Assembly (NCBI GenBank): GCA_973895155.1 | Contig: OZ316892.1 | Coordinates: 23,941,971-24,005,970, forward strand | Direction of reading: 5' to 3' | DNA length: 64,000 nt | Source: Marsupella aquatica | Taxonomy: Eukaryota > Plantae > Marchantiophyta | Part shown: positions 6,606 through 43,800 of the stretch, in pieces | Numbering within the stretch: the first letter of the stretch is position 1 | Layout: each line of letters starts with the position of its first letter | Program-made: the position numbers and the translations under genes | The notes under the pieces: model-generated | Told to the model about the DNA's origin: nothing | The model's input: only the letters and a program-made list of their open reading frames with translations | The model's database searches: none

Positions 6606-6723
6606 TGTCGAGTGGAGAAAAGGAAGAGCAGAGTCGACTCTGGTCCTCTCTTCAATTATGTCATGAGAAGATCGCACGAAGAAGCGCATCAGGAGCTACT
6701 GAAATTTGCAATCGAGGAAGGAA

Positions 6724-11880: not shown

Positions 11881-12254
11881 TCACCTGCGACTCTCTCCCG
11901 TCGTTTGCACCCGAAGGAAATTTCGACTTTCAACGCCCAGTTGTGTGAGTGGTGAGTGGTGATGTTCACTGGGTACGTCCTGTCATATGAGTGAAATAAT
12001 ATCTCGTGTACACACACTGCAATAGGATCCAAGGCTAACAAGCTTGGTACTCGAACAACACCCAATCTAAGTAGAGTTCAAACTTGAACCTCCATCAAGG
12101 CGTGTGAAACCCCTCCAAGTAAATGTCTGATACTCTGCCTGTATCTAAGCTTGGCAGGAATGTTCTGCTCAGATCATGTACTTAAGTTCTCGAAATAGAA
12201 TGAAACGACAGAGCTGGTGGAACATCGATCCTAGCTTGAATTCAAAATCACCAT

Positions 12255-15243: not shown

Positions 15244-15259
15244 CGTCCCTTCAAAGCTG

Positions 15260-17160
15260 TCCGCACAAGCAAGTTTGTTTCACGATTAGACTCAGACCTC
15301 GACGTATCACGAATAGGTTGAACGGCAAAGCAGCTCAGAAACGCGTCCTTGAGAACTGTCGGCACAGACAAATTCGTTTCACGATTGAACTCAGACCTCG
15401 ATGTATCACAGATGGGTTGAACGGCAACGCAGCTGAGAAACGCAAAGGAAGGAACCACTTCAAAAGACCGACAGCTACCAGCACAGACAGCTTCGTTTCA
15501 CGATTTAAGAAGACCTCCACGCAGCACGGATGGATATAATGACAGTGCTACGTACTGAGAATAGAATCCCAAAGGTAAGAACCACCAAGAAACGGAGAGT
15601 TGTCGACACAGACAAATTCGTTTTACGATTGAACTCAGACCTCGACGCATCACGGATAGATCGAACGGCAATGCTACTTTAACACGCAAAGGAATGAACC
15701 ACCAAAAAAACCAAGAGTTGTCGACACAGACAATCTCTTTTCACGATTCAACTCAGACCTCGACAAACTCGGTTCACGATCCAACTCAGACCTCGACGCA
15801 GCCAGGATGGATGGGTCCCAACGGCAATGCTACTTTGTGACGCAAAAGAGTGAACCACCAAGTAAACCTAGAGCTGTGGGGCACAGAAAATTCGTTTCAC
15901 GATTGAACTCAGACCTCGACGCAGCAAACGGATATATAGATCGAACCGCAATGCTTCGAAACGCAAAGGAACCACCAAGTAAACCGAGAGCTCTGGGGCA
16001 CAAAAAATTAGTTCCACGATTGAACTCAGACCTCGACGCACCACACGGATATAGAGGTCGAACCGCAATGCTTCGAAACGCAAAGGAAGGAACCGCCAAG
16101 AAGACCAAGACCTGTGCAGGGCCGCACAGAACAATTAATTCGTCTCACGATTGAATACAGACCTCGACGCAGCACACGCGTAGATCGAACGGCAATGCTG
16201 TTTCGAAACGCAAAGGAAGGAACCACCAAGAACAGTTAGTCTCGAATACAGACCTCGACGCAGCACACAGATAGATCGAACGGCAATGCTACTTCGAAAC
16301 GCAAAGGAAGAGGGAACCACCAAGAACAATTCGTCTCACGATTGAATACAGACCTCGACGTAGCACACGGATAGATCGAACGGCAATGCTACTTCGAAAC
16401 GCAAAGGAAGGAACCACCAAGACGATCGACCAAGAGCTGTGAAGCGCACAGAAATTCGTTTCACGAGTGAACGCCGACCCTACACGGAAATTCGTTTCAC
16501 GATGGAACGCACACTTCGATGCAGCACGGATAGATCGAATGGGCATGCCACTGAGAAACGCAACGGAAGGAACGCACTCGCTCAGACGACCACAGCGAGA
16601 GCTCGTCGATGAGGAGTGAGAGAGAGATGGAATGGGAATGCCACTGAGAAACGGAACGGAAGGAACCCACTCGCTCAGACGACCCCACAGCGAGAGCTCG
16701 TCGATGAGGAGTGAGGGAGAGATCGAATGGGAATGCCACTGAGAAACGCAACGGAAGGAACGCACTCGCTCAGACGACCACAGTGAGAGCTCGTCGATGA
16801 GGAGTGAGAGAGAGATGGAATGGGAATGCCACTGAGAAACGGAACGGAAGGAACCCACTCGCTCAGACGACCACAGCGAGAGCTCGTCTATGAGGAGTGA
16901 GGGAGAGATCGAATGGGAATGCCACTGAGAAACGCAACGGAAGAAACCCACTCGCTCAGACGACCACGTACAGCGAGAGCTCGTCTATGAGGAGTGAGGG
17001 AGGGATCGAATGGGAATGCCACTGAGAAACGCAACGGAAGGAACCCACTCGCTCAGACGACCACAGCGAGAGCTCGTCGATGAGCAGTGAGGGAGAGAGC
17101 TCAGACGACCACAGCGAGAGCTCGTCGATGAGGAGTGAGGGAGAGAGAGAGAAAGAGAGA
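15260..17160. repeat. CpG-rich compound satellite: type A (~100-125-bp units, 15260-16520) grading into type B (~93-96-bp units, 16520-17160)
   Basis: Type A core tttcacgattgaactcagacctcgacgca..gatcgaacggcaatgct; type B core gaatgggaatgccactgagaaacgcaacggaaggaacccactcgctcagacgaccacagcgagagctcgtcgatgaggagtgag; both share the gaaacgcaa.ggaaggaacc segment. Confidence 0.9.
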
Positions 17161-17304
17161 GTGACTTCAGACAGCGAGAACTTGACAATATATACGTACA
17201 TGGCAACTGTGAGCGGCGAGACGATGCCGTCATTGTTCGGTAAAGGATGTGGACGCTGCCAGGTGTGGATTGGGTACACGTCGGTCTGACTGGCACTGGT
17301 CGGG

Positions 17305-20945: not shown

Positions 20946-22474
20946 ATGCCTGGGAGGTGACGAGGTTTTTTCGTGACGGTTTTCCAACGTTCATTGTCAG
21001 TGTTGCATTTGGAGTTTCACGCATGAAACTTGTATGTGTGTGGCTGAGCGGATAGATTAGTGAGAGGGCTTTCTATCGGTGTATAGAACTCACTGGTTGG
21101 TATCTGTGGTGCGGAGGAATCGGACTTTGCGTCATTCTGGATTTATTTGTGTTCGACGGTTTTTTGGGGGAGAGACCAGAGCTTGTGTTTTCAACGGTGT
21201 GAGTTGTGCGGTGCTGGCGGCGTCGCATGTTATAGCTCAAGTTGGAGGTTAAGGAGAGCTGATCGTTTCGGTAGCTGAGTTGCTACCGAGTGGTTACCGA
21301 GTGCGTCGTGACGAGCGAAAGAAGCGTTCAGGTTTTTTCACAGGCTATAGAGCTTGTTCCCATCTGAACCGGGTTTCTCATCGTGACGTCTAACTTGGAG
21401 GAAGAAACGCAAAGTGCTACGGCTCAACGGTGAGATCGCGACAAGGCGGTCGTTTTGAGTCCGGGATTGGCACTTGATGCGGAGTGATGGCGACGTGATA
21501 GAAGTTTTTTCTTTGCTGGAGCAGCAAAGTGTGCCGATGCAATTTGGCAACTTTTTCCGTCGGTGGCATTCACTTTCCTCATGTAAACGGCAGCGGCAAA
21601 GGTGTGTAATCAACACAGTTTTCTTTGGAGTTGTTTTTGTTTTTAAAGGGGTTTTTAAACACCCTTTTTGGTGTATATTGTGTGTGTATACACACAATAT
21701 TGGCTGGCCTTGTACCCCCGTCTTCTCTCCCGTTTGTAGTTGCAACGACGAGCTGTGCAGCGCCGGCCGGCGCTTTTCGCGCGCTCGTACGCCCTTCGCC
21801 ATACCCCGCCAGTCGATGTCGCGGCCCCGTCCTGTCATCGTATGCCCGGCCCTTAGTGTACTCATGGCTGCGTATGCAGCTGCTTTGTCCCCCGCGCCCT
21901 TCGTACACCCCTGCGCAATCCCGGCCCGACCCCTTTATACGTGCATTTTTCTTAAGGGGCCTTAAAACTCCTTTTGGGCCCAGTTTTATTTTAGCCCTCC
22001 CCCCTTCTCATTGGTTGTGCCGCATCTTGGGCCCTGTGACCCTCCATTTTAACCGCTTAGATAGGGGGGACGGCCCCCTGTGAGACCTGTCGGACTGTGC
22101 GGGAATATTCCCAAAAAACAGAGAGCTATTTTTTGGCCATCCGACAAAGATTCCGCGCGCCGAATGGTAATTGTTTTGGTTCTTTTTTGGCGAGGTCGTA
22201 GCCATTGAAGTTAGCAACGTGGCGCACCAATCAAATTGCGATTCCGACAATGGGTTGTACTTGGCATTTTGGTTGTTCCCTGAGGTGGTCAAACGGGGGA
22301 GTTTCCCAAGGTTTTACCCACCCCGACCAAAATTTGAATAACTTTTCTGTCGAACTTCAATTTTGATTTTGGTTTTCAATGTTGGACTCCTAGCTTTGTG
22401 GGCTACACAACGGTGTTTTGTTTTGAGTTTTTTGAGAAGTTGTGAAAAACGACATTTTTTTGTGATTTTCTCAT

Positions 22475-23258
22475 ATGAGTGATTTGGAAGAGATTTTCGA
22501 AGACGTGGAACTTGAAGCACGAGGATCACCGCGACAGTTTGAGGTGGAGAGAGAAGAGCAGGAGGAAGAGCACGTGACATCGGTACCATCACCGATGCGC
22601 CTTGTGGTGGAGGAAGCTGTTCTACTACCGGAGCTCATGGTAGTGCAAAAAAAGAAGATGGGGACGTTCAAGCTTGGGGGACCCAAGTATGAAGTGACAA
22701 AGTATGATGGGCGCTCTGACTACTTGCTATGGAAGAAGCAGGTGAAGGGAGTGCTCTATGCATCAAGGATGGGCCAACTGCTGAGCCCTCATGAAGACAA
22801 TGTTGACTGCATGCAGGAGCAGGGAGTGTGGTGTGTTACACTCTATCTCATGCCTCCCATCATCAAGCAGTTGGGTGCACATAAGGATTGCATGTCCTTA
22901 TTTGCGGAATTGCAGAGCAAGTATCACTGCAAGGAATTGTCGAACCGGCTCTACACTTCCTACAAACTGATGAGTTTCAGGATGAAGGAATCCGGTACAA
23001 AGTTGCAAGACCATGTGGATGCTTTCAACGACATGGTCGTTGACTTGGAAAACCTTGCCTAGGGAGACTTTGAATGATGAGACGAAGGCTCTGCAACTTC
23101 TCAGTTCATTGCCTCCATCTTACCAGTCTCTATCACGAGTCAGTGTTGTTGCATCGTGATAAGGATAATATTTCATACAATGACGTGGTAAGTTCTCTAC
23201 TTAGTGATGATCTTTAGCAGAAGATGCACATCACGTCACAGCCTTCATCAGCTGGTAT
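22475..23258 (+). pseudogene. gag: Copia gag, 5' part (stops/frameshifts; cut by the DNA transposon)
   Basis: KYEVTKYDGRSDYLLWKKQVKGVL and ...LMSFRMKESGTKLQDHVDAFNDMVVDL (UBN2-type gag), LLSSLPPSYQ. Confidence 0.85.
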
Positions 23259-23848
23259 CACTATATTCATTAAAACTGAAATTATAAAGGATATAGGGAA
23301 ATTTGGCGATTTAAAAACATAGTTTTAGGCATGAAAATCGTAAATTTGGAAGATGAAAAATGAAAATTCAAGCATCATTAAATGTAAATTTGGGGACGAA
23401 AAAATGAAATTTGGGGAAAGTAAAATATTAAATTGGATGATATTAAAAAACATTTGGGTGATAAAAGTGTTCATTTGGTTGGAAAATAGATAGAATCTAG
23501 TAATAACATATAAGCTTGGATAGCATCTATATTCAAAACATTTAGCTTGAGTAAGATATCTAACTAAGCACCAATACAATGGAATGACTATAGTGTCTAG
23601 ACAAAGTTAACTAGGATGATATCCAACCTACTAGAAGGAATGAAATGGCATCATTTTCTAGAATTAAAATATACTAAGACAAATAAAATAATAATTATAA
23701 GAAAGTCCATTCAATAGCTTTGAGAGATCATAGAGTATTAATTTGATTGTCTTGTTCTCTCACTTTAGACAAACGCATGGAAATCAACTCGACCCTCTTA
23801 ATCACAAGTCATTTGAGTGGAGACTTGTAACCTACGAGTTCTATCAAT

Positions 23849-26800
23849 CTACTCATCAATTATACCTTCCATGTAAATTTTGAGAGTTTTCAAAACATTC
23901 TTAGGAATTGTCAAACCTCTATCCATAATATTTTGTTCTTTAGCACCTGACTTAAACCCATACATTGCAGAATTTGCAAACTGCCAACTTTGAGTAACAT
24001 TGTCAAACCCAAGATCCAGCTCCCAAGTCTTAGTGGTTTGAAAGCAACGTTCATATCGAACATCATCCTTTGCATCATGCTTACCATGTTTAGACCTCCA
24101 CCATTGTACTTGGAACATAGGAGCATTCCTCTTAGGAATGCTCTCAACAGATGTTGAAGAAGACCCTTCAATATGTTGCAAATCTGTTGAGGGAACCTCA
24201 TGGTTTGGATCCACACCACCCAAAGCTCGAACCAACCAGAAACGCCCTTTGCCATTTTCCTGTTCCCATTCATCCTCTGGACGTAAAAATACAAAGTGAC
24301 CTTCTTGAATATCTTGTAGAGGAATCCAACGTGCAGGTTCTCGCTCTTGTCGTGCACCAACAAAGGGTGCAGCTTGATCTTCCATCTCTTCCATGTACTC
24401 ATTTTGAAGGTCCATCATCTCTGGATTTTGAGAAGGTTCACTTGACGGTTGAGATGTCCCAAAAATCATCTTGTAACCTGTGCCATGGTTAGTCTTTGGC
24501 CAAAAATCAGTTGTCAATGGCAAATGTCTTTCCCCCTCCCCTTCTATTGTAAGTTCCTCGGACAGTGCTTGCACAAGATTCTCCCAATATTTGACTAGAG
24601 GAAATCTCTCTTTATATGCTGCAGAGGTCTCACCCTTACAACTTTTCTTCAAGAAATCAATATAGCGATTAAGGAATGGGATGATTTCTCCAGCCTTCTT
24701 TTGTACATCCCCAGATATAGGTTTTGCAAATGGTTGGCCTTCCGGTAAAATGAGTGCATTTGTGATGGGATCAGTTCTCCAAATGGACCTCCCCATTGCT
24801 GGAAGCCAAGGTTGCTTGACATGTGCTTTACATTGATACACTGGCACATTATCCCTCATGGAGAAAAGAAATGCCACTGGTTTTGAGTGACCTTCTATCT
24901 CTTTCACCTGGAAAGTTTTCAAATACTCCTTGTAAGATGCAACCTCTTGAATCAATCGTGGTACAGGATGAATGCTTTCACACTCCCAAACCTCAGCCAT
25001 CAACCCCAAGAGGGTAGCAACCTCTTTGTATCTGACCTGTTTGGATACTTGAGAAAATAATGCATCCACGTCTTCATGGGTGTGGCCAACCATGAGGAAT
25101 GACATTTGCACAGTTTCAAACACCCCCCTGCTAACAAGCTCAGTGCAAAATGCCATCACATATTGATTTTTGTTATCTTTCCCTGAATTGTCCATCTGCA
25201 ACGTTAGGTGCCTTGGTAAGGGCTTGAAAGAGCCCCTAGTAGTCTCAGGATCATCCTTAGAACCAACATCCACTGTGCTTGACTTTTTAGTCTCCTGACC
25301 ATCTTCAATGCCTTGAAATCGAACAATTGAAACATTTTTGGGTTCCAAGTAACCGGCCAGAAATGCTTCAAAGTCTAGAAGGGACTGAAATATTGGCCTA
25401 GTTGCATTCCAATTCAATCCCTCAAGAAGGTCTCCAGTTTTGTCTCCTGTGTAATCTTCCAAATCTCGGAGGCATTTGGCCAAAGATGTCACGGTAAAGT
25501 CTGCATCTCCAGGCCAAAGTCCAGTCAAACTGAAATGTGCATAAACTCCAGGATCTCTTCCATGGGTTAACATCCCAGTAAGAGCAATAGGCAAAGGCTG
25601 ACCACTACCAAAGAGGGATTTTGGAGTGGGGACCAACCTGGGGATCCAAGTCTTGGCTTGATCCATCTTATCGTGAATAATGCAAAGATAGTTTTGAGGA
25701 TCTTTCTTTGCAAGAACCCTATGAGCATAGTAAACATATCTTCTTGACATTTGTTCACGAAGATGTCGCGCTCTTTTCTCTTCAATCTCTGCACGCTCTT
25801 TTTTTCTCTTCTCCCGCATCAATTGATCTTTGAACTCAGTGCAAAATGTGCACTTGGCAAATGCACTTCCCTTGTGAAAGTCAAAATTATCAAATGAGTT
25901 TTTCCAGATGTTGTACATAGTAACTTCAGTAACCTTAGCAAACCCATCTAATTCCATCTTGGTAAACACCTCTTGGAAAATCTCCTTCTTAGTAAAACAA
26001 GATGGGAGCCGATATTCAATAGTGTCAGTGCCGTTGGACCCACCATAGGGAAGATGTGGCATTGGTTCCCCATTTTGGATTAAAATGGACTCCAACAAGG
26101 CGCGAGCGTGCAAAGTGCTTGATCGTGTCTTCCGTTGTCCCTGATTTCCATGGAAACCAATTGTGCAACCAGCTTTGTATTGATTTTTGTAGTCATAGTA
26201 CTTTGTTGTACTGAACCCATGCATTTTAATAAATGCATCTTTACAAACCACACGTCCCTTTAGAACAAAAAATCCCTTTCTCTTGACTTGCTCCTCTCTA
26301 CACCCAAAGAGACTAAAGATGTGACTTGTTTTGTTGTCACTTGACATTCCATGGCATTCCCTCCTCATTGCCTCTAAGTCCTCCCTGGGCATGTTCAAGC
26401 AACACTTCAGCTTGCAACAACCTTCTCTTTGGATGGAATCAATGGACTCCTCGTTAATTTTCAAAAGTGCCCTCGACTCCAAATGCCTTTTCTTCCTCTC
26501 CTCAAGATCAACTTTTGTCCTCCTAATGAAATTGTATGGTCTTTTTGTAGGTTTACCATCACCATCCGAATCCGGATCGCCCTTAGTTCGACCCGACTCC
26601 ATCCACTTCTCTGAAACTTCCTCAAGGATATCCCCAAGAAACCTTTGAGACGAAATCAATAGAAGGGATTTGATTTCCCACCTCACCAAGCCAGGGGTAC
26701 CAACACGGATATTTGGAAATAATCCGGGTTCATTGATATTCACAACAGCAACACCAACATGATCTGCACCAAGAAGTTCATCGTCAACGGCACCTGTTTC

Positions 26801-27570
26801 AAATGGGACCGTGATAACACCTGTTGCAACCTTTCGACAACGAGAAGCGTCATACAAATCAACCTCCTCCGCCATCCAGTTGGAACGTAGTGTAAAATAT
26901 TTAAATGGAAGATCATTGAAAATATTTGAACTACCAAACACGCCAAAATCTCGTAGAGTGCCCTTTCTAGAAACATGCGCAACATCCCAGATAACCCAGG
27001 TATGCAAGGCCTCTTCTATTGTATCAGCTCCAGGGTGCGAGTATGACAATTTTTGATTTCCTTTAACAATATCATATATTCTTATACTGATGCGACCAAC
27101 CCCGAGTGTTTCAGTATGACAAATATCCATCGGATTTGTCTTGAAAACGACTCCATTTGCAACCAACTGATCAAAAATGAACATCTGAACTTCATCTCCT
27201 TCCTTGAACACGTCCTCTTCAACCCTTGCATCAATTTTGGATTTATCATTTCCAGCATCTCCAGCCAAAGAGAAATCATCGACATTGATTCTTCGGCGCT
27301 GAGTTGATGACCTCAAGTATGCCAATGCACAATCCCAAATCACGCAGGAGTCAATTGCCTCAGCCAAATGAATGTAGAAAATTTGGGCGAAGGAAATGGA
27401 AGTTGACGCGATCCATCAAAACACTTTTCAATCAATACCCCAATTCGATTGTCCCCTAGACAAATGTTTTGTATAGTATCCTGGGGGTCAACCTTTTGAA
27501 CTATCCCAATTGCCGTTTCAAATCCATCGATCACCAATGACACTTCATCCCCTCGTGTAAAATTGATCAT
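23849..27570 (-). CDS. DDE transposase with a Sola1/DUF7869-like core, three N-terminal Tnp1/En/Spm-like repeats and a C-terminal beta-rich module; one apparent frameshift near 27368
   Basis: 1172-aa ORF with CCKLKC, AKCTFC and H zinc-type motifs, IIHDKMDQ, LQMDNSGKDNKN and FLMVGHTHEDVD; the upstream 76-aa ORF (27570-27340) is homologous to the repeated N-terminal module and joins it out of frame. Confidence 0.85.
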
Positions 27571-27696
27571 GATAGCGGACTATCTGTATTCAAATAAAGT
27601 TAGAAATTGTTAAGTTCCCCATGTTACAATCATGTTTCAAAATCTGTACTCTCCTCCAAAAAATATTGTGAAATCACTCAAAACCCTAAATACATT

Positions 27697-28025
27697 CAAG
27701 TCGGGTCGGAATTATTTCGACCCTCCTCCAACATTATGTCTTGAAATGATTGAATTGACTAAACATTTACAAGTCGGGTCGGAATTATTTCGACCCTCCT
27801 CCAACAATATGTCTTGAAATGATTGAATTGACTAAACATTTACAAGTTGGGTCGGAATTATTTCGACCCTCCTCCAACAATATGTCTTAAAATGATTGAA
27901 TTGACTAAACATTTACAAGTCGGGTCAGAATTATTTCGACCCTCCTCCAACAATATGTCTTAAAATGATTTAATTGACTAAACATTGATAAGTTGGGTCG
28001 GAATTATTTCGACCCTACTCCAACT
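27697..28025. repeat. Five 73-bp tandem units, each containing the inverted repeat GGGTCGGAATTATTTCGACCC
   Basis: GGGTC starts at 27703, 27776, 27849, 27922 and 27995 (exact 73-bp period); an inverted variant lies at about 28118-28143. Confidence 0.95.
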
Positions 28026-29188
28026 ATTAAGTTGAAATTATGTCAAAACTATTTGTGAAACTATCTTGCTTATGCTTTTATATACCAGTTTAAAATGCTA
28101 GTTAAGATGACATAGTCAGGTCGGCACAAAATAATTCCGACCCACTTCTAGAAACTATGTTAGTAATCACATAAAGGGGTACAGTAAGTTCTACACATGC
28201 TAGACTGTGGATAAAGGTCTAGAAATGAGTAAAATATATGATCTAGAACCTAATGTGTAAATCTTAATCTAGGTTTGGCTTAAAGGTATTGAATTAGATG
28301 TAGTTGAGCTAGTACTTCTAAGATAAATAAATAAAATCACTAACCTGCTCCGCAATATATCTTTGCCCACCCTTGTACAAGCTAAATGGGTACCTTGGAT
28401 GCCAGCATTGTATCTCTTAGCACCACAGTGCTCACCAGTGCCCTTACTAAACCTTGCATTCAACCATGCGGACCTAAATAAGGCACTCGGACAGAGGAGA
28501 GTCAGTGATCGTACCAATCACTGTCTAAATGACAATGAACCAAAAAATGGATTGTGGGAGGTCTATACTCAGTTTGAGAGGCAAAAAGCCCACACATTAC
28601 CCAGCACACGAGTGGACACCAACAGATCGAGCACGGGTGGATGAGGCACGCACCCAGCACACAAGTAGACATCGGATAGGGTGTCAGCCAATCACTCACG
28701 AGTGATAGGTGAGTTGCGAGCACACACCGCTGACAGCTCGGAAGTTTAAAATTGGTAGGTGAGTCGCAAGTGGTCGTGAGTGGTCACACCATCGGTGACT
28801 CACGATCACATGCACCGAGGAGGGTCTCCATCATTGGCGCACATTGATGCCTCCGTACCCTCTCGGATCCTTGCCTCCTCGGACTCCTCGCTCGCAGGGG
28901 GTATAGGAAGGCAGGCCTTGCGCTTGAGGCCTCATTTCCTTGCCTCCCTCTTGCCTCCTCTCTCGTCTCCTCACTCCTTGCCTCCCTCTTGCCTTGCTCT
29001 AGGGCTTTTGTTTTTGCCTCGCTCTTGGGATTTTTTTTCCGCCTCGCTCTAAGGCTTTTATTTCTGCCTTGCTCCCTTCCCTTTTGGGTCACTCCCTCGA
29101 TCATTGTTTGCTTGTTAGTGCCCTCTTGCAGCCTGTGGCATTCTCCATTGCTGCCACGTGTCATCTTAAATCTCACTCGCCCCTTACA

Positions 29189-32100
29189 ATGTCTACTTCC
29201 TCCAGTTCTGAAGCTTCCACCACCACCGCCAGTTCTCAAGAGTCATTGAACTTCAATTATAACTCTCTGTATGAATATGACCCTGAAGACCCGGATGTCC
29301 AAAAATTGGTTAACAATGCGTTGGAGGCGTCAAAGAAAGCCCAGTTAACTTTTCCACGTAAGGCACCACCTGCTTCAACTTCTTGCCTCGCCCTTAGGGC
29401 GAGGCAACTTTACTTTAATTTGGATTTCAAACTTCTTATTAGGAAAATTTCTATATTCCTTTGTAGTCGCCTCGCCCCAAGGTCGAGGCGACGTCTACTT
29501 CATTCTAGATTTCTTGTTGCTCCGAAGGCGTATTGGACCTTGTATCTTACATTAATAAAGGATCTAAGTTAGCTATATTCTATTTTTTGCCTCGCTCTTG
29601 GGGCGAGGTGATGTCGTCTGCATTCCTCAAATGTAGTCTGCATTCCCAGAAGTTGCCTCGCCCTTGGGGTGAGGAGATGTTATCTGCATTCCTAAATGTT
29701 GTCTGCATTCCCAGAAGTTGCCTCGCCCTTGGGGCGAGGCGATGTCCTCTACATTCCTAAATGTTGTCTGCTTTCCCAGAAGTTGCCTCGCCCTTGGGGC
29801 CAGGCGATGTCCTCTGCATTCCTAAATGTTGTCTGCTTTCCAGAAGTTGCCTCGCCCTTGGGGCGAGGTGATGTTGCCTGCAATGTCCTCTACATTCCTA
29901 AATGTTGTCTGCTTTCCCAGAAGTTGCCTCGCCCTTGGGGCGAGGCGATGTCCTCTGCATTTCTAAATGTTGTCTGCTTTCCAGAAGTTGCCTCGCCCTT
30001 GGGGCGAGGCGATGTTGTCTGCATTCCTAAATGTTGTTTGCTTTCCTAGAAGTTGCCTCGCCCTTGGGGCGAGGCGATGTCGTCTGCATTCCTAAATAAT
30101 GTTTGATTGCTTGGATGAGGTGGCAGGGCTAATTGCACTAGGAGCAAAGAAGATTTTGCAATCTTCTATTTGTCGCCTCGCCCCAAGGGCGAGGCACCTT
30201 GAAAGTTTTCCACATGTCAATGTTAAAAATATGATGCTGACCATTTTGTTTTCAATGTTTCTTACCAGGAAAAAATCTTGAGAAGCAGGAGTTAAATATT
30301 ATGGACGAGGATATCAAGGACTTTGTTTTCCCTGACCAAGATACTCCAGGATTTAGATGGGCACTAGAAGTTGGGGTGTCGGCGGAAGGCAGTCTCTTGA
30401 TTTGTTTCAAGGGCCTCACAAGTCAATTGAATGACCGCAAGACAATTGTTACTCTAGGTCTAGTCGTCCTTGTGAACACGGACAACAACCGCAATGCAAC
30501 GATTATTGTTGAGTCCAATGAGAAATCTCAGTGGATGAGACTTCTAGTGCCAATAAAACTCTACTCGACTTTACTGAATGTTGAGTGGATGGCTCGATTG
30601 GAGATAAGCGTAGCTGATATGGGATTCTTCCCAGATGGAGTAACAATTGATCAGATGTTTGAGAAGATGCGTTCTCAAATAAGTGGAGTTGACCTAGTGT
30701 TTGGATTTCTCTACGTAAAGAAGCACATGCATGACAATGCGGACAGTGTGGACCCTCCGTCTACTTGGATAGTTCAAAGGATGATTGATAAGGCACATTT
30801 TTCATACGAGCAAGCAATCGACAAGAGTTTCATTTTTTGTCCAGAGTTTCAAGAGGCCGCGTGCCGGACGTGGATTTCAGAGATGAAGAAAAAAGAAGCA
30901 AAGCATAAGGCAAAGGAGAGAAAGAAGACAGTGGAAAGAAGTGCGCAATCAAAGACAGAGAAGAAACGAAAGCTTCAAGAGCCGGTTGTTCAACAAGAGA
31001 AACAATTTGGGAGTTCACGCCGTAAGAAGATGGCTAAAAAAAATGAAGATGATGAGGGCCCCCAAAAAAAGCAGACAAAGAAGGCAAAGGTTGTGAAATC
31101 AAAACCAATGTCAGGGTCGACTTCAAACTTTGTCTTGCATCCAAAGGATGATATGTGTCCGACAGAAGGACCCAAAGAAGATGATGTGCTCAAAGGCCAA
31201 GAGGTTTTGTGTAATATTGAGCAGTATTATACTTTTGGCATCCGCGAAGTTTTTGATATTCCTGTAAAAAGTATTAATCCGCCATCGGCCGTTTTTGTAT
31301 ATCGAATGTTCAATCTTTCACATGCAATGGAGATATCAAAGTCTATGATGAAAAACCCTGGACAGGAACCACAAGTTGTTGATTTGATTCCGTATCGCGA
31401 GAGCACTAAACAGTTGCTTCATTATGACAACACACCTCAGGATAGGAAAGAGTTTTTGATTGGTGTGAAGAAGCATGAGATCCAATTCCTTGCCATTAGT
31501 GGCCAGCATTCTGCAAGAGCTGCCCAATGGATCCAAGGGTGGGCCGAGACTGACGCCAAGCTGACAGATCTTGCCAACAAACTAAAGTATAGGAAAGCAA
31601 GGATCCTATCTGACCTCACTCCGAAGACAATTTTGGTTGAGCATTCAAGTTTATCGAATGTTGTCAATGATACTATGCAATTTAAGTCTTGTTTTTTAGA
31701 GACTATTGTTCATGCACGAAGGCAGTTTGAGGAGTGCGGGAAACCGCCGCGTCCAAGGATTGGGACCAATCAAAATACAGACAAGAAAAACTATCAGGTA
31801 CATGTTGGAGCAACGCAAACTATTCTTGATCCGCTTTGGTTAAAGATTGTCAATGGTAGAGGTTTGCCTCGCCCCAAGGGCGAGGCTGCCTTTTCTTGTT
31901 TTCCTTGGTTAGAAGATTAAAGCAAATGTTTGCCTCGCCCTCAGGGCGAGGCAACCTAGACTAGTCTCTCTAAGAATAATTCCCTAGTTCCGTTTCAGTC
32001 AATTGCGGTTAGATGTAGAGGTTCGCCACGCCCTTGGGGCGAGGCGGCTTAGCCTGTTTCAAACATAGGTATAAATTTTCTAACATATGCATTGTACCCT

Positions 32101-34411
32101 GAAACTAATGTCAAGTCCATTGGATATGCAGGATTGGTTTGCCCTGGCAAAGGTTACAATGGGGAAGTCAAGCCTAAAGAGCATTTATTGGTTACTTTTT
32201 GCCGAACATGAGCTCTTTGAATTATGGCGGAATGTGTGTGCAAAATGGTTGAGTGGGAAGCTCCAAGATGGGGGTGGTGGGTATGGAGGGCCAAGACCCC
32301 CAAAATTGATCACTCCCGGTACCTTTCGATGCTTTGAAGGAGAGATTAGTAGCAAATAGATAATTGAGATCTTGAAGGACGTTGAAGAGGAGCGTGTCTT
32401 GCTGAAGAAGGATATCACCAACAAATCAGAGCTTGTCGCAATGGGAGACTTGGCCCTTACAATCAAGATAATGTCCAACTTGAGAACAGTCATTATTGGC
32501 TATTTCGTGGAAAAGTATCGTGAGAAGTTTCCTGTTGGCACATCTTGGGAGTCTCTGGTGATATTGTTGCCTTCCTTGAAATCTGAGCTTGAGATGACAA
32601 AATTGAGGAGAGCAGCGGGTGAGGTTTACCTCAACAATTCATTGAAGAAGAATGTGGTCAAGGAGAGTTTCCCACAAAGTCTGATGGTCAGACTAGATGG
32701 GTTGTATTGTAAAGAATTTGGTGGGATTGGTCGTTCTTGCACGGAGCCTTTCTTGACATTTTTTAGTGAGAATTTGATGAAGACGACCGTGCCGGAAATG
32801 CTACAAGAGCCTTCGCCTTTGTGTCCTCTTGCCATTGTTGACTTCAGTAGGCTCCGACAACATGTTTGGACCGATGCTGAAATTATTGCATTACTGCAAT
32901 ACATTGTGGATCTTCCAAGAAATCCAACAATTGTTGTTGTCATGACTGTGCATCCGGGGCCACTTGCTGCAAACATTTTGAGTGCCCTTAGGAAATTGCA
33001 ACATGAAAAGGGAATGGACATCCACGTTGACTACGGGAGCTATCGACGGAGTGATACACCAGTTCCAGAGGGCTTACTTTTCAGTTGTGGTATGGAGGAG
33101 ATAATCTTTGCAGGAATCACCACTGAGGAGAAATTTGATTGGAAGCAAGTGTTCAGGCCTGGATTTAATTGCCAATTTTCTTACAATTCGGCAATCGACC
33201 CTGATTTCCAAGTGGAAGACAAGACGGAGAAACGAGATAAGAATAAGAGTAAGACAAGTAAGGAGACAGAGACTAAGTCAACTTCGACATTTCACATTGG
33301 AGATTTCTTACGAAAGGCTCCCATGTTTGAGATGGTGGGAAGTAGAGGTGGCTTTGTGAATATTCACGCTAAGCCAAAATGTATGCTGCAGAGTATTATT
33401 GAATTTTTTTCGGCTGAAGGGGAGACTATACTTGACTTTTTCTCGGGAGGACAGGTTATGAAGGTGTCATTGTTGTGTTTTAGAGAATGCTTTGCGTATT
33501 CAGACATTGAGGATGAATATGATTTCACTCAGGCATATGGAAGGGTTCTCTGCGAGAAAGTTCCTTCCATAATGAGTGACCGGATGGGTGGTTCCAAATT
33601 TGGGAGAGCCCGTGATGGGGTTTTCGAGCATGTTGGTGCCAAAGAAGGCGTAGACCAGGGCGAAGATGATATTGAGGAAGGAGAATTGGGTCACGACACA
33701 GACGACAGGGTCACCCGAAATTTGGATGAACGTGGAACACAAGTGGTAGGTATTCCCTACTTTGGTGTGGGGTTGGCTGATGTTGTGGGTCGACCTGAGG
33801 GTGACCCACCAAGAAATCCCTTTGCCGGTGTAGAGAATTGGATGCACCAATCGGACCTAGATCTTACATCGTCCACATCGAACGGACATTGGAAGGCAAC
33901 CGCAGATGGTCTAGGCAATATTGACGCAGTAGAATTGGGAGAAATGTCGGACATTGCGCTTGCAAAGGAGGATGATCGTCAAGTACCTGAGACCGCTGCA
34001 AATGAAGAAGAGAAGGCAGGTGCTTCAAATCCTCCCCTGTCTCCTCTATATTGCTCATCAGAGACTAAATTGGTTTTTACAAGTGCTTCTATAGGAAGCC
34101 CCATAGTATTATCATTTTCACAAAATTCTGGATCCGAGATCGGCAGGACTGGATATATGAAAATAGTCCGTCCTGCAACTCATTTTATATGGAGAAATGG
34201 ACCAAAGGTTGGAATGATAGAATCACTAGACGATGCTCCAAAGATAATGGCAAAATCAGATTACAAAAAACTGAACTTGAGACTGAGCCCAGTTTTTGCA
34301 CCCCCATCCTTTGAAGAACAACTTCCCAGTGGTATCAATTCCGAGATACAGAGTGTTCTAGGTGATCAAACAATAGATGAATTTGGGCATTTTAGCATTG
34401 GAAATTATTAG
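29189..34411 (+). CDS. Transposon cargo gene: ParB/Srx-like domain + beta-class N6A/N4C DNA methyltransferase-like domain; exons 29189-29357, 30269-31797, 32132-34411; one in-frame TAG at 32357-32359
   Basis: Phase-compatible GT-AG introns (c|gtaag...accag|ga gives CGA; cag|gtac...tgcag|gat). ParB-like: FDIPVKSINPP..YR..N..H..EISKSM..P..VVDL..FLAISGQHSARAA..KARIL. MTase-like: LAIVDFSR...EEIIFAG...NIHAKPKCMLQSIIEFFSAEGETILDFFSGG..KVSLLCFRECFAYS. The 3' end may be further spliced (candidate exon about 34482-34572). Confidence 0.75.
29385..30195. repeat. Intron-1 array of 11 palindromes GCCTCGCCC-NNN-GGGCGAGGC, eight of them in an ~65-bp tandem repeat
   Basis: Copies at about 29385, 29469, 29589, 29655, 29720, 29785, 29849, 29926, 29990, 30055 and 30175. 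Confidence 0.92.
31866..32045. repeat. Three further copies of the same palindrome in intron 2
   Basis: Copies at about 31866, 31932 and 32025. Confidence 0.9.
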
Positions 34412-35108
34412 CCATTTCTTTGGTTCTTGGTATTTTAATGACAATCTAAGCTTCATCTTTGTAATAATATACTTTTTTACAGACCAAAGTTCCGTCGTAG
34501 AATCTCCTTCCTCAAAGGATTTTGTTGGCATTCCCTCGGAAAGCGTTGCTGTGGAGGAAGGGTTTGACCCAGGTATACTTTGGATCTGAAAAATGGCAAT
34601 TGAATGTAATTAATGTTCTAGTGCCTGCCCTGAATTGTACATTCAAATGTTGCTCTAGTGCCTACCCTGAATTGTACATTCATATTATGTCTTGAAAGGA
34701 TATGTTTTGAACATGTAGGATAAAGTAAATAATTAGGATATATGCTTAGTGTGAGGCTCTCTCACTGGACTGGACAATTTAATAATTATATAGTGGGTCA
34801 ATCTCATTTTGACCCTTGATTTATGACCATCTATATTTTTTAATTTATAGATGGTCTGAGTGGTATTGGCCTCTGATTTTTGGACTAAATTAAATTTACT
34901 CTAGTTTTTAAATTAATTAGAATATATGATTTAAGTTATTATTAAAAATTTGGGTGAAAAAAAACAAAATTTTGGGCGTTCAAAAGTGTATATTTGGGCT
35001 GAAAAAAATTAGCTTTTGGGAATGCTTTAATAGAAATTTGGCCTGAAAAAAATAACTTTAGGGTTCATCTTATGGACTTTTAAAAGTACAGTTTTAATGA
35101 ATATAGTG

Positions 35109-37892
35109 ATTGGTGCTGCCCTCAATGTTAACCGTGGGAGGAGTATGCAGCGACCAACTGGGGACCGTAGAACCCAATTTAGATCTAAATCCAGATCTAA
35201 GTCCATGGGTAAATCCCCTTAGAGGAGGCAGGTGACATGTTGGAAGTGCAACCAAGTTGGACACTTCAAGTGAGACTGTAAGGGAAAGGCAACGGAAATT
35301 TCATCACCAAATGTGGCTAGGGCTGATGGAGAAGCTGATTTACTCAATGATGAGTATGTTTTATGAAGCCGGGGGTATGCCCTATGCACGTCATCTAGGA
35401 GAGCAGATGATGTGTAGATTCTTGATTGTGCTTGCTCTTTTCATATTTGTTACATTTGTGAGTTTTTCAGTTCTTACTCTATTTCAAACGGTTCAGTTCT
35501 AATGGGAAATGATCACTCTTCTCAAATTGAGGGAATTGCGTCTGTGACGGGGTCTGTGAAGATTCAAATGTTTGATGGTGCTATGCACACAATGTCCAGA
35601 GTCAGGTATGTACCTGGCATGCGTAAGAATCTGATTTCACTCGGTGTGTTGGATTCAAATGGTCATCAATAGAGCGTTATTGATGGTGAACTTCAAGTCA
35701 GGTCGAGAGAGACAGTAATTTTGAAGGGGAGCAGACAAAAGAATTTGTATTTGTTGCAAGGCAATACTGTATGTGGAGAGGCCAATGTAACCAAGTCTCA
35801 CGAGGAGATGACTCAATTGTGGCATTCACAGCTAGGTCACATGAGTGAGAAGGGTTTGGCTATCTTACGGAAGAATGGACTCATTTCTGATTTGCAATCT
35901 TGTAAATTAGAGTTTTGTGAGCATCGCATTTTATGAAAATAGTATCGTCGTGCTTTCGGTGTTGGAACTCATCGTTCCAAAGCGGTTCTTGAGTACATAC
36001 ATAGTGACGTGTGGGGTCCATCCCCAACTCCCTCACACTCTGGAAAGTTGTACTATGTATCTTTTATTGACGATTACTCAAGATTTGTGTGGATTTATTT
36101 CATGACGCATAAGTCTGATGTCTTGTCCATTTTTAAGAAGTGGAAGGCCCAGGTGAAGAATCAGACAAGAAACACGGTCAAGTGTTTGGATACAAGGGTG
36201 AAGAGTTTGAGGTCAGACAATGGTGGGGAGTACACTTTAGTGGAATTTGAAGAGTACTATTCAGAACAGGGGATAACTCGCCATCTCACCACAGTTTATA
36301 CTCCATAGCAGAATGGTGTCGCTGAGAGGCTCAATCGGACATTGTTGGAGCGGTCACGGAGTATGTTGAGCCAATCAGGTACGTTTACCACAAGAATTTT
36401 GGGCATAAGTTGTCAATACCGCAACTTATTTGGTAAATTTTTCACCTTCTGGTGCTATCAATTTCAAAACGCCGTTTGAGATGCGCTATAAGCGGCAAGC
36501 AGACTATCATGGCTTGGTAGTTTTTGGAAGTGATGCATATGCTTTTACACCAAAGCAAAATAGGACCAAGTTGGATCCTACCTCCAAGAAATATGTTTTT
36601 CTTGGGTACCAGAGTGGTGTGAAAGCCTATATAGGCTATGGGACCCTATTGCCTGTAAGCTCGTTGTCAATAGGGATGTTTCCTTCAATGAATCCAGATT
36701 ATTAAAGGAGGGGAAGAAAACTCAGGTCTCCCGTACTGACAAAGGAAAATCTCCTATCCTGGATCTCGTTGAGGGGGAGATTGGTCATGAGGTGCATGAC
36801 CGAAGAGAAGGAGTTGCTCCAGTTATGGAGTTGGTTCCTGTGCCAGAGGAACTAGAGGAGTTTGTTGATGCTGGTGAGTAGCAAGTGGATGCTGCTGAGC
36901 TTCAATTTGTACCAACACACGCAAATCAACCGAAGTCATCGGCTAGAAGAGCATCTGGTTGCACTGTACGCGCTCCACCAAGGTATGGACAGTGGGTTGA
37001 TTCATCTCAGTTGCAAGAGGAGGATTTTGTTATTGACGATAAGGGTGATGCGTTGATTTTGGAAGAAGGGGAACCTTCTTCATTTCACGAAGCAAGTGCT
37101 TCAAAGGAGAAGCAGGAGTGGACTGCAGCAATGCAAACAGAGATGCAGTCCCTGAAGGACAACAAAACTTGGGAGCTTGTCAAGATGCTTGAGGGACAGC
37201 AAGTGGTGGACAGCAAGTGGTGGACAACAAGTGCATGGATATACAAGCTGAAGGATCAGTCCACAGGAGGTGGATCAAAGGTCTACAAGGCTAGGTTGGT
37301 AGCCAAGGGATTCACACGGGAAAAAGGTGTGGATTACAATGAGGTCTTCTCACCAGTTGCTAAGTACTTAACAATACGGCTATTGTGTGTGCTTGTTGTT
37401 ATGTTTGGTCTGCTGCTAGATCAGATGGATGTTGTCACAACTTTCCTCTATGGCACCTTGGAAGAGGTGATCTTCATGAGACAGCCGCTAGGTTTTGTGA
37501 AGAAAGGGCAAGAGGATTTGGTTTGCAGATTGTTGAGATCCTTGTACGGGTTGAAGCAGTCAGCAAGATAGTGGAATAAGCAGTTTGATGATTGGATTCG
37601 TGCACAAGGCTTTCACAGGAGTGTGTTTGACCCATGTGTGTATCTTAAACCGGTGAAGAATGTTGTCTTTGGGTTCATTGTTTTAGTACTTTATGTGGAT
37701 GACATGCTTATTGCGGCCAAGGATAGGTCTGAGATTGTTAAGCTCAAGGCACTACTTAGTGCAGAGTTTAAAATGAAGGACTTAGGGTCAGCTAAGAGAA
37801 TTTTGGGTATGGAGATCACTAGGGACTTGGAGGCTGGCAAGCTATGGTTGACGTAGAGTAGTTATGCGAGGAAGGTAATTGCAAGGTTCAAC
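35109..37892 (+). pseudogene. pol: Copia gag 3' end and pol (zinc knuckle, protease, integrase, truncated RT)
   Basis: CWKCNQVGHFK*DC, ILDCACSFHIC, LWHSQLGHMSEKGL, HSDVWGP..FIDDYSR..LRSDNGGEY..NGVAER, YKARLVAKGF..QMDVVTTFLYG..YVDDML..FKMKDLG; numerous stops. Confidence 0.93.
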
Positions 37893-39520: not shown

Positions 39521-40852
39521 AAAACCTGGTCAGTCTGGATAGCAAAACTGTGCAGTTCCTTGGTTTACAAGAAAGCAGCCTATGGCTCATTAAGAGGGGC
39601 TAGATTGGGGGAAAAACGTTTGGAGTGGGTTCACGAAGCAAACAATTTTACGGAAAGGGGTGTATTTATGCATATTTCTCTGACTAGCTTCTTCAATCTG
39701 CTTAGGAGACTAGGCAGGCTGGGGCACAAAATCTCACGAGCCGCTTGGGATGCAGAGAGTGGAAGGAGGTAAGGTGTGTTAGAATCAGCACAATAGCGAT
39801 GGCGCAAACTTGCTAATATCGTAGTCGATACAGAGGTGATCTAGCTGGGGAGCCATATCTTACGACAACTCTTGCTTATCAGTGACGACGAAGACGACTG
39901 CGAGAGGGAGGGATGGCTGATGTCTGCCGACAGATTTAGCAGAAGAAGAAAACAGAAGTATGTGAGATGGTCTCGCAAGAGAATGCTTGGAAAGATCTCA
40001 ACTAAAATTTGTCGAATCATTTTCAATAACGGAAATGAATGAATTTGTTTTCGTCCAAATCTGATTGGCTTCGATTTGTGCCGCAGCAGCTCATGGTCAG
40101 CCATCGCTACGGAATTCTTCATCTCTCAATCCGCAACCAGTCTTCGGCAGCTGCTACTTCAATGCAAGGGTTTCGTTTGATAGCATGAATTGAAGCGGGT
40201 AGTACCCAGCCTGACTGGGGTTCGATTTCTCGTAAACTTATGCCAATTTCTTTCGCCTATATTGCTTTCAAAACCTTCGATCTTTAAATTTCAGATTCCA
40301 CACGACTGTTTCATTCTGTCGAAAGATTGATCGAATTTCAAGGTTCTGATCTATCTCTCGTACGTAGATCTCTCTTTTGATTTCAATCTATCACTACTCT
40401 GATCCAGATCGAGTCAAGTAAAATCTCTCCTGTTTCTGCCTTGCTTTGTTCTTCTACTACATACGTACGTATAGTAGTGATCAATGATAAGTACGCATTC
40501 CGTGTCGAGTAATTCGCACTTTGAATCTAGAGGACAAAAGCTGGTTAATTACAGATAATTGCACTTCGAGTTCAGTATTCATTCAGTTGTCACACCCTCT
40601 AGAAATGCATTGTATCTTTAGAGCTCCAGTCGCTGGCTTATGGTGCATTTTGTGAAGTCCATTGGCGTAAACCAGGAATGAATTAGGTGTAAAGTTGATC
40701 GCTAGAACATTGTAAGTGCATAATCTTTTTAACACCTCTGAATGACACCTTTGAGTGCATATTTTAGAGAACTTGGGTGTAAACCACGAAAGTAGCCCTG
40801 TGGTAGATTGCAGCTAGAGCAGTGATTTCGCTGCAACAAGGGATTTGTTCTT

Positions 40853-43800
40853 TCAGTGGACAGGACAGCCTGGACGATGGACTCCAGGAGCTGTGGGGCA
40901 CGAGGCGAGAGGGCAGTGATCGCCGTTTGCCTTCTTGCCCCACCAGTTCAACACCTTGTTGTGTTCGTCGAGAGAATAGTACAGCAACAGCGCCATCACC
41001 ACCGTTCCCGCATCCAGGGCTGCACTCAGGATGTAGTTGTATCGCTTCCACCACTGTTTCTTGTAGTTGAACACATAGATGCTGAAGAAAAGAGCCACGT
41101 AAATCCACATGGAATTGTTGACGACGGGGGATGGCGGCATGAGGGTCGCCCCTTTGACGAGCAGCGGGGCGTTGATGAGATGTAGCCATTCACTCCGAGG
41201 CAGGGCGATACCGAGCAGCCATAGAATCATGGGAAAGAGGAAGCCCGGGATGAAGTAGAAGTTCAAGGTTCTGTATGGAGCGCCGCCCTTAGTGAGAAGC
41301 CGGTGAGGGCCGGCGATTCCGAACATCACTGCTTGGTCGTAGAAAACCCTGTCGTGTGGACACGTCCACGGAGAGTTGCTCGGCAGCTTCGAGATGTCGC
41401 AGATGTTGCTGATCGATCCTGTTAGCCACGATGCCACCACCGTGCTCACTAAAGCTGCGATGAGAGTGCTTATCAGCTGTTTCGGAGCAGAATTCATGAA
41501 TCGAAATCCACCCACAAAGACGGGTTCACGATTAGATTTCTCGTTGACCAATGCGATACGGCGAACTTGAATGGAAATCATTCTGCGTAACTTAGTACAA
41601 AAGCATGATTGGTAATCTTGATTTAACCCATGATTGACTTTTGTTTAAGATGCAAACCTGATTGTAAGTTCTCAAAGAATTATGGTGAAAATAAATAAAT
41701 GTCCGTTCAGTTAGATGTGATCGAGGCGTGTTGAAAAAATAAGCGGGACGCTATTCATTTAAACTAATGAAAGAAATCGAAATGTTTGATCAAAACTAGT
41801 AAAATAACTTGACTTCCAGATACACATCTACACGGCCTAGTTCAATCAGTAATTATGATTCCTGTCTCCTGTACTTGTTGTACTATTATGATTCTTGTCT
41901 TCTGTACTTGTTGTACTGTGTAGCTGTTAGAAACCTCGACAACTTCCTTGTGTTCAACTTTAGAAGACTTCTCAGAATCAGGATCCCCATTTTGCTTCGA
42001 ATTGCACTAGCTTAACCGTGATCATCGTTTAGGGTACACCGAAGATAGAGTTTCTGCCCAATCTTTTACAACATTCCAGATTTTTCCAGATCCTTTCACA
42101 CTGTCTAAAGATTCGTGGACGAAGAGTTTCGTGGAATCTTTTGTGATTACCTGTGCAACGAAGGTTGCCCTGGGTGGGATCTTCATATAGTGGCCAAGCT
42201 TGAAATTCCCCAAGTAATTGGCCGTCCGACCGCAAACGACGGCGCTGTAGGTTCGAAACATCACACTCGTGATGGGCTCTCCCGCGCGTATGAACCCCAT
42301 GAGATACTGCGGAATGATTCCCAAGTTCGGTACCTGGTCCCCGTACCGAATCCAATTATCCACTGAAATTTCAGGAGTATCTTACTGTACAATCATGTTG
42401 AAGGGGAGTAGTATCTTACTGCCTCTATATTCTGTATTCTGAGGAGTAGCTGCCTATTTTCTGATATTGAATGGCTCTCATGATCGATGCAACAGCAGGC
42501 TAATTAACCATTTTCCATTGATCCATACCTGGCTAGTAGTTCCGACAAGTATACAGATGGGGACCACCAAGACGGCGGTAACGCCAGTGGCAAGGATGAC
42601 GCCCCACCATTTCATTTCCAGCTGGTCTTTGTAAACTACCAGATTCACAATCGCAGCGAGATGCGTGCCTAACAGCAGGAGCAAACACCATCGAAATGGA
42701 ATTTCCGGGTACTTGCGCATCAACCTAGTGTGAACGTCTGGAGGATCTGCTGATCGTTGCGTGATCGCAGATTTGAACGTTCTCAGAAGATCCCTGTACA
42801 TCATGTGACAAATTTGAGCAAACATTAGAATTGATGAGTACGTGGCCGGTTGAATTGGCTGAGACCAAGGCACACAACATTGCAGAAAGGTTTAATTAGA
42901 ACAAGAGCTGAGTCCGTTGCCTAAATGTTTTGAAGCGGAGAAGAGTCCAGTCATGAAGTAGTCTGGTCGTTCGTGGCAGAAGAAGCTGACTCACTTTCCA
43001 TTGAAGAAAAGTACTTGTGAGATCACAGCGCCGAAGAGAGCAAAAGTGATGCCAACGCCCGTGGTGTAGAAAGCGCTGAAATGCGGAAGAGATTCGACAT
43101 CACGAATGGTGCCTCTGCTGCGGTGCAGTTTGGAATGTGTTCGCTCGAGTACTTTAGCGACATCATATATCTGACCTGAAGTCCAAGTTCCAAAGATCTT
43201 AGTCAATGGCGCGCGTCGATAATCTTCAGTCAGAGTTCACATATAATGACAACTCTCAATTTAATTGACAGCGACCTCTGTAAAGTTTATAAATCCCACA
43301 GAAGAGACTTCGTCCAACCAACATTCATCTCTGAAGGAATCTATTGGAAGGGAAGGCGTAGTCCTTCGTCGAAATAGCCCACGTTGGCAAAGTACATTAT
43401 CGGAAATAATTATATCATACGCGTGCATTTTGGCAATTTGAGCTCTCATTTAAAGCATCATTAATATAAGAACATCTAGATCGACCGTTATATATTCAAT
43501 AAGTTGGACGTACGCTTTAGTTAGGAATTGAGCTCGAGATCGGAGCCTTGACTAGCTGAAAGATTTAAGTCCATACCTGACCGGGTGAAGAGGCCCATGG
43601 AGAAAATGGGGTAGTTCTTGGAGTGGAACCAGTTCTTCCAGTAAGTGAGGGGAGCGAGAAGATAAGCTTGGAGGACAAATCCAACGAGGATATTGATAAC
43701 AGCAGCCCAAGGAAGAATGAGTGGGCTACCATTAAATGACGAGATCGTGGCCCAGTTCAGACTAAACGCACCAAGGCCCAGTCCGCTTAATCCTGAGCCC

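Follow-up and report, generated by a model that had tools for sequence, protein, structure and literature searches.

The stretch analyzed here, called the window, is 64,000 nucleotides of contig OZ316892.1 of Marsupella aquatica (GenBank assembly GCA_973895155.1), and all coordinates are positions within it. The window contains an element of 11,854 base pairs (bp) inserted in the gag region of a copia-type retrotransposon. The element has two genes on opposite strands. One encodes a DUF7869 transposase, and the other, termed here the accessory gene, encodes a protein with a predicted amino-methyltransferase fold. The ends were tested with public contigs from four runs (three studies) placed on 22700-35700. 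A second placement, also of four runs, was made on 34960-35230, and its pieces are those listed. The features are given below.

22466..37571 (coding span only), + strand: decayed copia-type long terminal repeat (LTR) retrotransposon, gag region interrupted by the element; Retrotran_gag_2, Pol_BBD, rve, and RVT_2 matches
23253..23256, + strand: left target-site duplication (TSD), TGGT; sequence, and empty-site joint from 23252 to 35111 with 4 ambiguous bases in four of four runs
23257-35110: whole element, 11,854 bp (about 11.85 kb); empty-site joints and ends of other copies
23257..23278, + strand: left terminal inverted repeat (TIR), 22 bp, begins ATCACTA; exact inverted match, and one run X2 contig starting exactly at 23257
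23849..27570, - strand: DUF7869 Sola-type transposase gene; Pfam, tblastn of P0001 in two frames, conservation, structure model, and fold search
27697..28024: array of a 73-bp tandem unit, 4.5 copies, lying upstream of the transposase gene; a 21-bp imperfect palindrome in every unit, GGGTCGGAA-TTA-TTTCGACCC
29189..34411, + strand: accessory gene, 1,325 amino acids (aa), three predicted exons (29189-29357, 30269-31797, and 32132-34411); GT-AG, phase, and homologs
29384..30196: intron 1 array, 65-bp tandem unit, about 10 copies of the 21-bp palindrome GCCTCGCCC-NNN-GGGCGAGGC
31495-31512, + strand: possible ParB-like region (ISGQHS) inside the accessory gene
31865..32046: three further copies of the intron 1 palindrome, in intron 2
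32357-32359, + strand: internal stop of the accessory gene, private to this copy; position 32357 reads differently at about 99-100% of the depth, four of four runs
32831-32851, + strand: degenerate motif IV site of the accessory gene, beta-class amino-methyltransferase fold
33431-33451, + strand: motif I of the accessory gene, LDFFSGG
35089..35110, - strand: right TIR, 22 bp; exact inverted match, and element-side contigs stopping at 35110 in X2, X4, X6, and X5
35111..35114, + strand: right TSD, TGGT; 23 copia contigs pass from 35111 into the left flank, four of four runs

A preliminary description of this DNA reported perfect 20-bp TIRs starting CACTA and flanked by a 2-bp AT duplication. The 20-mer CACTATATTCATTAAAACTG does have two exact inverted copies in the window, at 23259-23278 and 35089-35108, with no matches in 100 shuffles, and both copies are flanked by the dinucleotide AT. 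The inverted arms returned by a repeat finder reach 23257 and 35110. Because AT is its own reverse complement, the window alone leaves it ambiguous whether AT was duplicated on insertion or belongs to the TIR as its opening dinucleotide.

Empty sites are present in the public data because the interrupted copia element is multicopy. In all four runs (1, 3, 6, and 2 contigs), position 23252 is joined to 35111; the joint leaves out 11,858 bp, and four bases at it can be assigned to either flank. This is the skip predicted for an element at 23257-35110 with a 4-bp duplication (11,854 + 4), whereas the AT model predicts 11,852; no joint of the latter length was found among the 15 of 49 joints listed. 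Four variant joints at the insertion site are equal in net length to the main joint. The second placement contains 23 copia contigs (4, 7, 3, and 9 by run) that pass from 35111 back to a left flank ending at 23252. Its element-side pieces stop at 35110 in three of the four runs, and no listed piece from run X3 reaches the end.

The element is 23257-35110, with exact 22-bp TIRs starting ATCACTA and a 4-bp TSD of TGGT. The AT is part of the TIR and not a target duplication, and the termini are not CACTA. The reported inverted 20-mer stands as the inner part of a longer repeat, while the 2-bp TSD does not; a 4-bp duplication, which the preliminary description had itself named as grounds for giving up its reading, is what this insertion carries. 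A palindromic dinucleotide at the end of a TIR is not callable as a TSD without an empty site. A gag reading-frame test, which seemed to favor the 2-bp TSD, was dropped as uninformative because the rival end models differ by six bases.

Other copies of the element, with other flanks, are present in the public contigs. Three contigs of run X4 extend beyond 35110 with dissimilar letters (agreement 0.59), which indicates that other insertions keep the AT. Among the best 80 of 517 metagenome loci (63 distinct groups), an inverted-repeat scan of 50 of the 80 and boundary clustering recovered no ends or TSDs, the loci being too decayed and nested. Family contigs of run X1 show about 1% divergence relative to this copy (10 of 1,365 and 19 of 1,675 letters). 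The locus holds a TIR element with other copies, which moved here with a 4-base duplication. Two single-contig joints of run X3, 25646 to 33860 and 28937 to 31938, have short sides and suggest internally deleted derivatives of the element.

The transposase gene is about 1,240 aa in length, with an ATG at 27570 and a frameshift near 27370-27390 in this copy. It is drawn in this way because homologs align from that ATG in a second frame. The open reading frame (ORF) at 23849-27415(-) contains the IIHDKMDQ, LQMDNSGKDNKN, and FLMVGHTHEDVD motifs and a CxxC-H motif, and Pfam identifies DUF7869 only (E 1.7e-43), with no match to Transposase_21. The CxxC-H motif is located at 25763-25852, catalytic D residues at 25670-25672 and 25190-25192, and the likely third D at 25064-25066. 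A homolog search returned 132 matches (120 listed), at least 72 from Riccia sorocarpa and others from Physcomitrium (E 2.8e-69), Ceratodon, and Mytilus, a spread that points to a non-seed land plant as the likely host. The closest among the matches listed are 43-49% identical. An insertion of about 70 aa lies between the first and second D and is missing from the Mytilus homolog. The N-terminus contains three repeats, which can be aligned with stretches of relatives that match Transposase_23 weakly (P0107, E 6.4e-7; P0036, E 0.0029); the repeats of the window transposase give no Transposase_23 match themselves. These repeats would be the sole remaining CACTA-like trait, and a weak one. Weak relatives of the transposase also occur on 13 prokaryote genome contigs, 11 of which are short and likely binned eukaryotic DNA; two of the relatives (L087 and L089) sit on contigs of 589 and 733 kb.

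The transposase core was modeled with 107 sequences at a mean predicted local distance difference test (pLDDT) value of 88. The model has an RNase H fold with the five-strand order and the last helix right after strand 5. D88 is placed at the end of strand 1, D248 past strand 4, and E287, D288, and D290 on the helix directly after strand 5. Residues D88, D248, and D290 are D in 95, 105, and 99 of the 107 alignment rows, respectively, and the other rows are gaps except for one N each at D248 and D290. Visual comparison with the Sola2 alignment in additional file 10 of PMC3627910 shows parallels in the core at SDG..Q[YF]KN and FF..HGK..[CV]D, and the distance from second to third D is 41 in that alignment and 42 here. 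D290 was chosen because of this likeness and is the likely third catalytic D. In the fold search, Mos1 (Z 9.1), the SIV intasome (Z 9.1), and Metnase (Z 8.8) match best, and mariner cores and those of retroviral integrases lead the structural hits (Z 9.1-8.0). Foldseek gave no match to the core model at E 0.001. RAG1 and Transib are absent from the best 50 fold-search rows, and a likeness to them may still exist.

These features were compared with two superfamilies. CACTA/EnSpm (CMCT) elements have CACTA or CACTG termini, a 3-bp TSD (2-bp in some related lineages), and a Transposase_21 core in which C(2)C and H(3-4)H fall after the second D and before the E. Here, the terminus is ATCACTA, the TSD is TGGT in four of four runs, the only CxxC of the transposase precedes the first D, and the model has no insertion after strand 5. 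CACTA membership is excluded. Sola elements have a DDD transposase, a 4-bp TSD, variable termini, and TIRs of 11-1124 bp, and are present in moss (PMC10741241). The element described here has a 4-bp TSD at one insertion and a 22-bp perfect TIR. Its transposase has three conserved D residues, the third picked by eye, and the model and fold matches agree with an RNase H fold. Sola membership is supported, and Sola1 membership is likely.

The preliminary description was right about the transposase motifs, about a non-CACTA transposase of DUF7869/Sola-like type, and about a head-to-head layout, the second gene being on the + strand opposite the transposase. It gave no identity for that second gene, and it went on to suggest that the element may be an unclassified lineage that fits no standard plant superfamily cleanly. 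The mismatch with Sola vanishes because the TSD is 4 bp, and a two-gene precedent has been published (Sola1-1_Ec32, below). Two of the three oddities behind the unclassifiable reading were a 2-bp boundary error, and a false signal of a new superfamily is removed.

The predicted exons of the accessory gene have GT-AG borders and in-phase joins, with one internal stop. Homologs cross the second exon junction with few gaps (P0146, 47% over 307 aa), and exon 1 is without homolog support. The stop is called private because all four runs show another base at 32357. This copy of the element is broken by one frameshift (transposase) and one private stop (accessory gene). A profile search returned 202 relatives of the accessory protein at E 0.001. 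Of 20 that were looked up, 15 are from Riccia, and two further relatives are from Calypogeia. Long intact relatives, 33-47% identical, are present in several lineages. A longer-protein search with exon 2 gave no match, which is weak evidence. Viral contigs contained 0 relatives among 105 pattern matches, and plasmids gave no match.

As in the accessory gene of Sola1-1_Ec32, an N4/N6 methyltransferase domain is present. The C-terminal half matches the Pfam N6/N4 methyltransferase family at E 0.0015, under the cut-off, which relatives P0129 and P0187 do reach. Atlas assigns N6_N4_Mtase at 0.93, with ten of ten best hits in agreement, and a profile match to M.RsrI has an E of 0.00025. The top 11 rows of a fold search with the accessory model are all amino-methyltransferases, including CcrM (Z 9.2, root-mean-square deviation 4.4 over 192). 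A PDB sequence search with the methylase region gave no match, and neither did Foldseek with the accessory model at E 0.001. By the model and these matches, the C-terminal half is assigned a bacterial-style, beta-class N6/N4 amino-methyltransferase fold.

Motifs were counted in 154 aligned relatives, 58 of which cover motif I and 41 the motif IV strand. Motif I, the S-adenosylmethionine (SAM)-binding motif, is exactly DFFSGG in 33 of the 58. Active amino-methyltransferases carry (D/N/S)PP(Y/F/W) as catalytic motif IV. This motif is absent here, and PPY is found in none of the 41 relatives covering the inferred site. An acidic D is kept in 38 of the 41, and all 41 lack both prolines and the aromatic residue. 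The accessory protein is predicted to be catalytically dead. The lineage-wide loss of PPY suggests that binding, rather than methylation, may be the conserved job of the protein.

Three accessory relatives in Riccia (P0183, P0235, and P0242) are fused in gene models to a NIF/FCP1-like phosphatase domain. In a separate 1,660-aa Riccia model (P0312, R1sor_024984), DUF7869 shares the protein with a distinct N6_N4_Mtase-like domain that bears a D-x-P motif. That domain is unmatched by the accessory-gene profiles and is possibly a second methylase passenger.

The surroundings of ISGQHS are conserved in six accessory relatives. We take this region to resemble ParB/Srx, an assumption backed only by Atlas leads below threshold. 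The element also contains two patterns of 21-bp palindrome. The transposase-side pattern has five copies, and the accessory-intron pattern has 13 copies over both introns. Neither pattern occurs elsewhere in the window. Of the 24 short GC-rich palindromes in the window, 16 fall within the element, which makes up 18.5% of its length. Of 80 moss-like metagenome loci, 12 (L013, L034, L056, L057, and others) contain at least four GTGGCCAC palindromes, often in arrays that flank the transposase remnant left and right.

Linkage of the two genes was examined in Riccia sorocarpa using 16 accessory tags picked among the longer hits and an incomplete set of 136 transposase tags. Two of the 16 adjoin a transposase tag (0.16 expected) and five lie within five tags of one (0.75 expected). 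The adjoining pairs are R1sor_018196/018197, which includes the best Riccia transposase match, and 013424/013425. The two gene families are linked in Riccia with moderate support, because the 16 tags were hand-picked, the 136 are incomplete, and 15 of those 136 themselves lie within five of another transposase tag.

The locus is probably best read as a broken copy of a multicopy 11,854-bp TIR DNA transposon, likely of the Sola1 group, with a methyltransferase-fold protein that is predicted to lack activity and to bind the palindromes of its own element. The identity of the element (multicopy TIR transposon, 4-bp duplication, likely Sola1 group) is held with high confidence. The role proposed for the accessory protein, a pseudo-methylase that would bind the CG-containing palindromes of its element and serve to protect or organize it, is tentative and falls a little short of an even chance. 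A transposase dimer would bind the 22-bp ends, and the DDD site of its RNase H fold would cut out the element and join it with a 4-base stagger, in a cut-and-paste reaction. The accessory protein would likely act in cis and in trans on its own family. Its ParB-like part and SAM-binding methylase fold may hold on to the 21-bp, CG-containing palindromes that are arrayed next to both promoters and within its introns. The bound palindromes might be shielded from host methylation, or the element might be brought together, by analogy with the VANC proteins of VANDAL elements. The candidate binding sites are visible in the element, and binding versus modification of its own DNA is directly testable.

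Several observations weigh against this reading. The 4-bp TSD was seen at one insertion only. The single target, TGGT, departs from AWWT, which has been called a hallmark of Sola1 (PMC3845634), and a preference would need many sites; the target bias of Sola1-1_Ec32 also differs from AWWT (PMC12477816). The Sola1 placement is based on likeness in TSD, fold, and motifs. The ParB-like call is weak: its Atlas values of 0.85-0.88 are under 0.9 and below the trust line, and Pfam, PHROGs, and NCBIfam give no match. The model of the methylase is of poor quality as a whole, with a mean pLDDT of 44 from six sequences, and the motif IV site was assigned from strand and motif order and aligned ranges. In Riccia, 11 of the 16 accessory tags are away from any known transposase tag, and the transposase tags also cluster with each other. 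An accessory-gene trace was found in only one of 93 transposase loci (L034, E 5.8e-8), on the same strand as the transposase and about 7.4 kb upstream.

Alternative placements of the element were weighed against Sola1. A CACTA-ended element of an unclassified lineage, carrying a foreign transposase and flanked by AT as a 2-bp duplication, would account for CACTA sitting 2 bp inside each end and for the preserved local gag frame once the element and one AT are excised. It would also fit the alignment of the N-terminal repeats to weak Transposase_23 (TNP1/EN/SPM) regions. The 11,858-bp skip refutes this explanation at this site, barring a private 6-bp insertion in this copia copy beforehand, and it is scarcely credible. 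The DUF7869 family could instead be a separate Sola subgroup or a sister superfamily and not Sola1 proper, as the non-AWWT target, the ATCAC ends, the insertion of about 70 aa, and the three N-terminal repeats would suggest; the term DUF7869 was also not found in the literature searched. Such a split is unlikely. Sola termini are described as variable (PMC10741241), the strong Physcomitrium homolog comes from a moss, the recorded plant host of Sola1 (PMC10741241, PMC9033089), and the best match of the Ectocarpus Sola1 bears the name Sola1-1_PPa (PMC12477816).

Two further explanations concern the accessory protein. It may have methyltransferase activity, with a non-canonical catalytic loop, and write N6-methyladenine or N4-methylcytosine on the element, as proposed for algal proteins. 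The strong conservation of motif I, the D retained at the motif IV site, and the Riccia gene model linking DUF7869 to a methylase-like domain with D-x-P are consistent with this. Set against it are the missing prolines and aromatic residue, the loss of rotifer N4CMT activity on changing SPPY to APPA (PMC8885841), and the inactive methylase domains of DIRS1 retrotransposons (PMC4738411). An active enzyme is about as improbable as a separate Sola subgroup. The gene could also be neutral cargo, acquired once and irrelevant to transposition, a view that the scarcity of accessory traces at moss-like loci (one of 93) would favor. Those loci are old, fragmented copies, and the long intact relatives, the Riccia linkage, and the brown-alga counterpart point to long-term selection. 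Neutral cargo is considered quite unlikely, more so than an active enzyme.

The two-gene design has a close published parallel. Sola1-1_Ec32 of the brown alga Ectocarpus has a 4-bp TSD and a gene on the opposite strand that encodes an N4/N6 methyltransferase domain together with a ParB-like portion (PMC12477816). Both are large Sola-type elements with an accessory gene opposite the transposase strand inside the TIRs, encoding 1,104 aa in Sola1-1_Ec32 and 1,325 aa here. Sola1-1_Ec32 differs in being 21.5 kb long, with AACCG ends and 282-bp imperfect TIRs; the present element is 11.85 kb long and has ATCAC ends with perfect TIRs of 22 bp. The host here is a land plant, and the likeness is one of design and not a sequence comparison. 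Sola1 of Physcomitrella shares the DDD transposase, 4-bp TSD, variable termini, and bryophyte distribution; its target is AWWT and not TGGT, and an accessory gene is unmentioned in the available portions of PMC10741241 and PMC9033089.

Related domains also occur outside Sola. The red-algal Plavaka (EnSpm) elements are giant DNA transposons whose accessory genes PAG2 and PAG3 encode PF01555 methylase-like and ParB-like proteins and have associated tandem repeats (bioRxiv 10.1101/2025.02.11.637652). Unlike the present element, they have a CMCT-type transposase, and they carry the methylase part and the ParB part in different genes, where these are joined to SET and 2OG-oxygenase domains. CACTA/EnSpm elements share short TIRs, a length above 10 kb, two genes, internal repeat arrays, and the weak Transposase_23-like N-terminal repeats, and differ in ends, TSD length, and transposase core (PMC10741241, PMC12730594). 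The accessory protein resembles the beta-class amino-methyltransferases CcrM, M.MboIIA, M.RsrI, M.PvuII, bdelloid N4CMT, and Marchantia DN4MT1 in fold and motif order, and differs in lacking DPPY/SPPY. Marchantia DN4MT1 retains TSPPY and is not described as transposon-borne in the available text (bioRxiv 10.1101/2021.02.12.428880).

The two-gene design is already known from Sola1-1_Ec32, with related domains in Plavaka. No land-plant Sola element with such an accessory gene was found in the literature searched, which leaves most subscription papers and Repbase outside it. Three things are new within that literature: a family in land plants, the exact position of its ends, and loss of the catalytic motif throughout the lineage. 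The element is a young, nearly intact, and compact land-plant case of a ParB-methylase accessory design that was elsewhere found described from algae. A broader proposal is speculative and, taken whole, rather doubtful. It would hold that non-seed land plants harbor a widespread Sola-related lineage, in which a bacterial-derived ParB-methylase passenger turned lineage-wide into a SAM-binding pseudo-enzyme. This protein would recognize its own parS-like arrays for anti-silencing or end-gathering, as a second, independent VANC-like origin.

The remainder of the window contains the host copia element and several minor features. An LTR search found no LTR pair for the interrupted copia. A multi-exon OPT oligopeptide transporter gene at 40767-46555 (-) is a host gene downstream of the copia. 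A DIOX_N (2OG dioxygenase N-terminal) match at 14584-15279 (-) lies beside long degenerate tandem arrays at about 15240-17170. A hairpin resembling a miniature inverted-repeat transposable element, at 48644-49165, has nested inverted repeats with the left arm partly duplicated internally. One repeat family has two inverted copies, at 4542-5011 and 58466-58855, which are 82-87% alike. Further tandem arrays are located at 5523-6607, 11182-11884, and 12252-12940, with units of 65, 148, and 78 bp.

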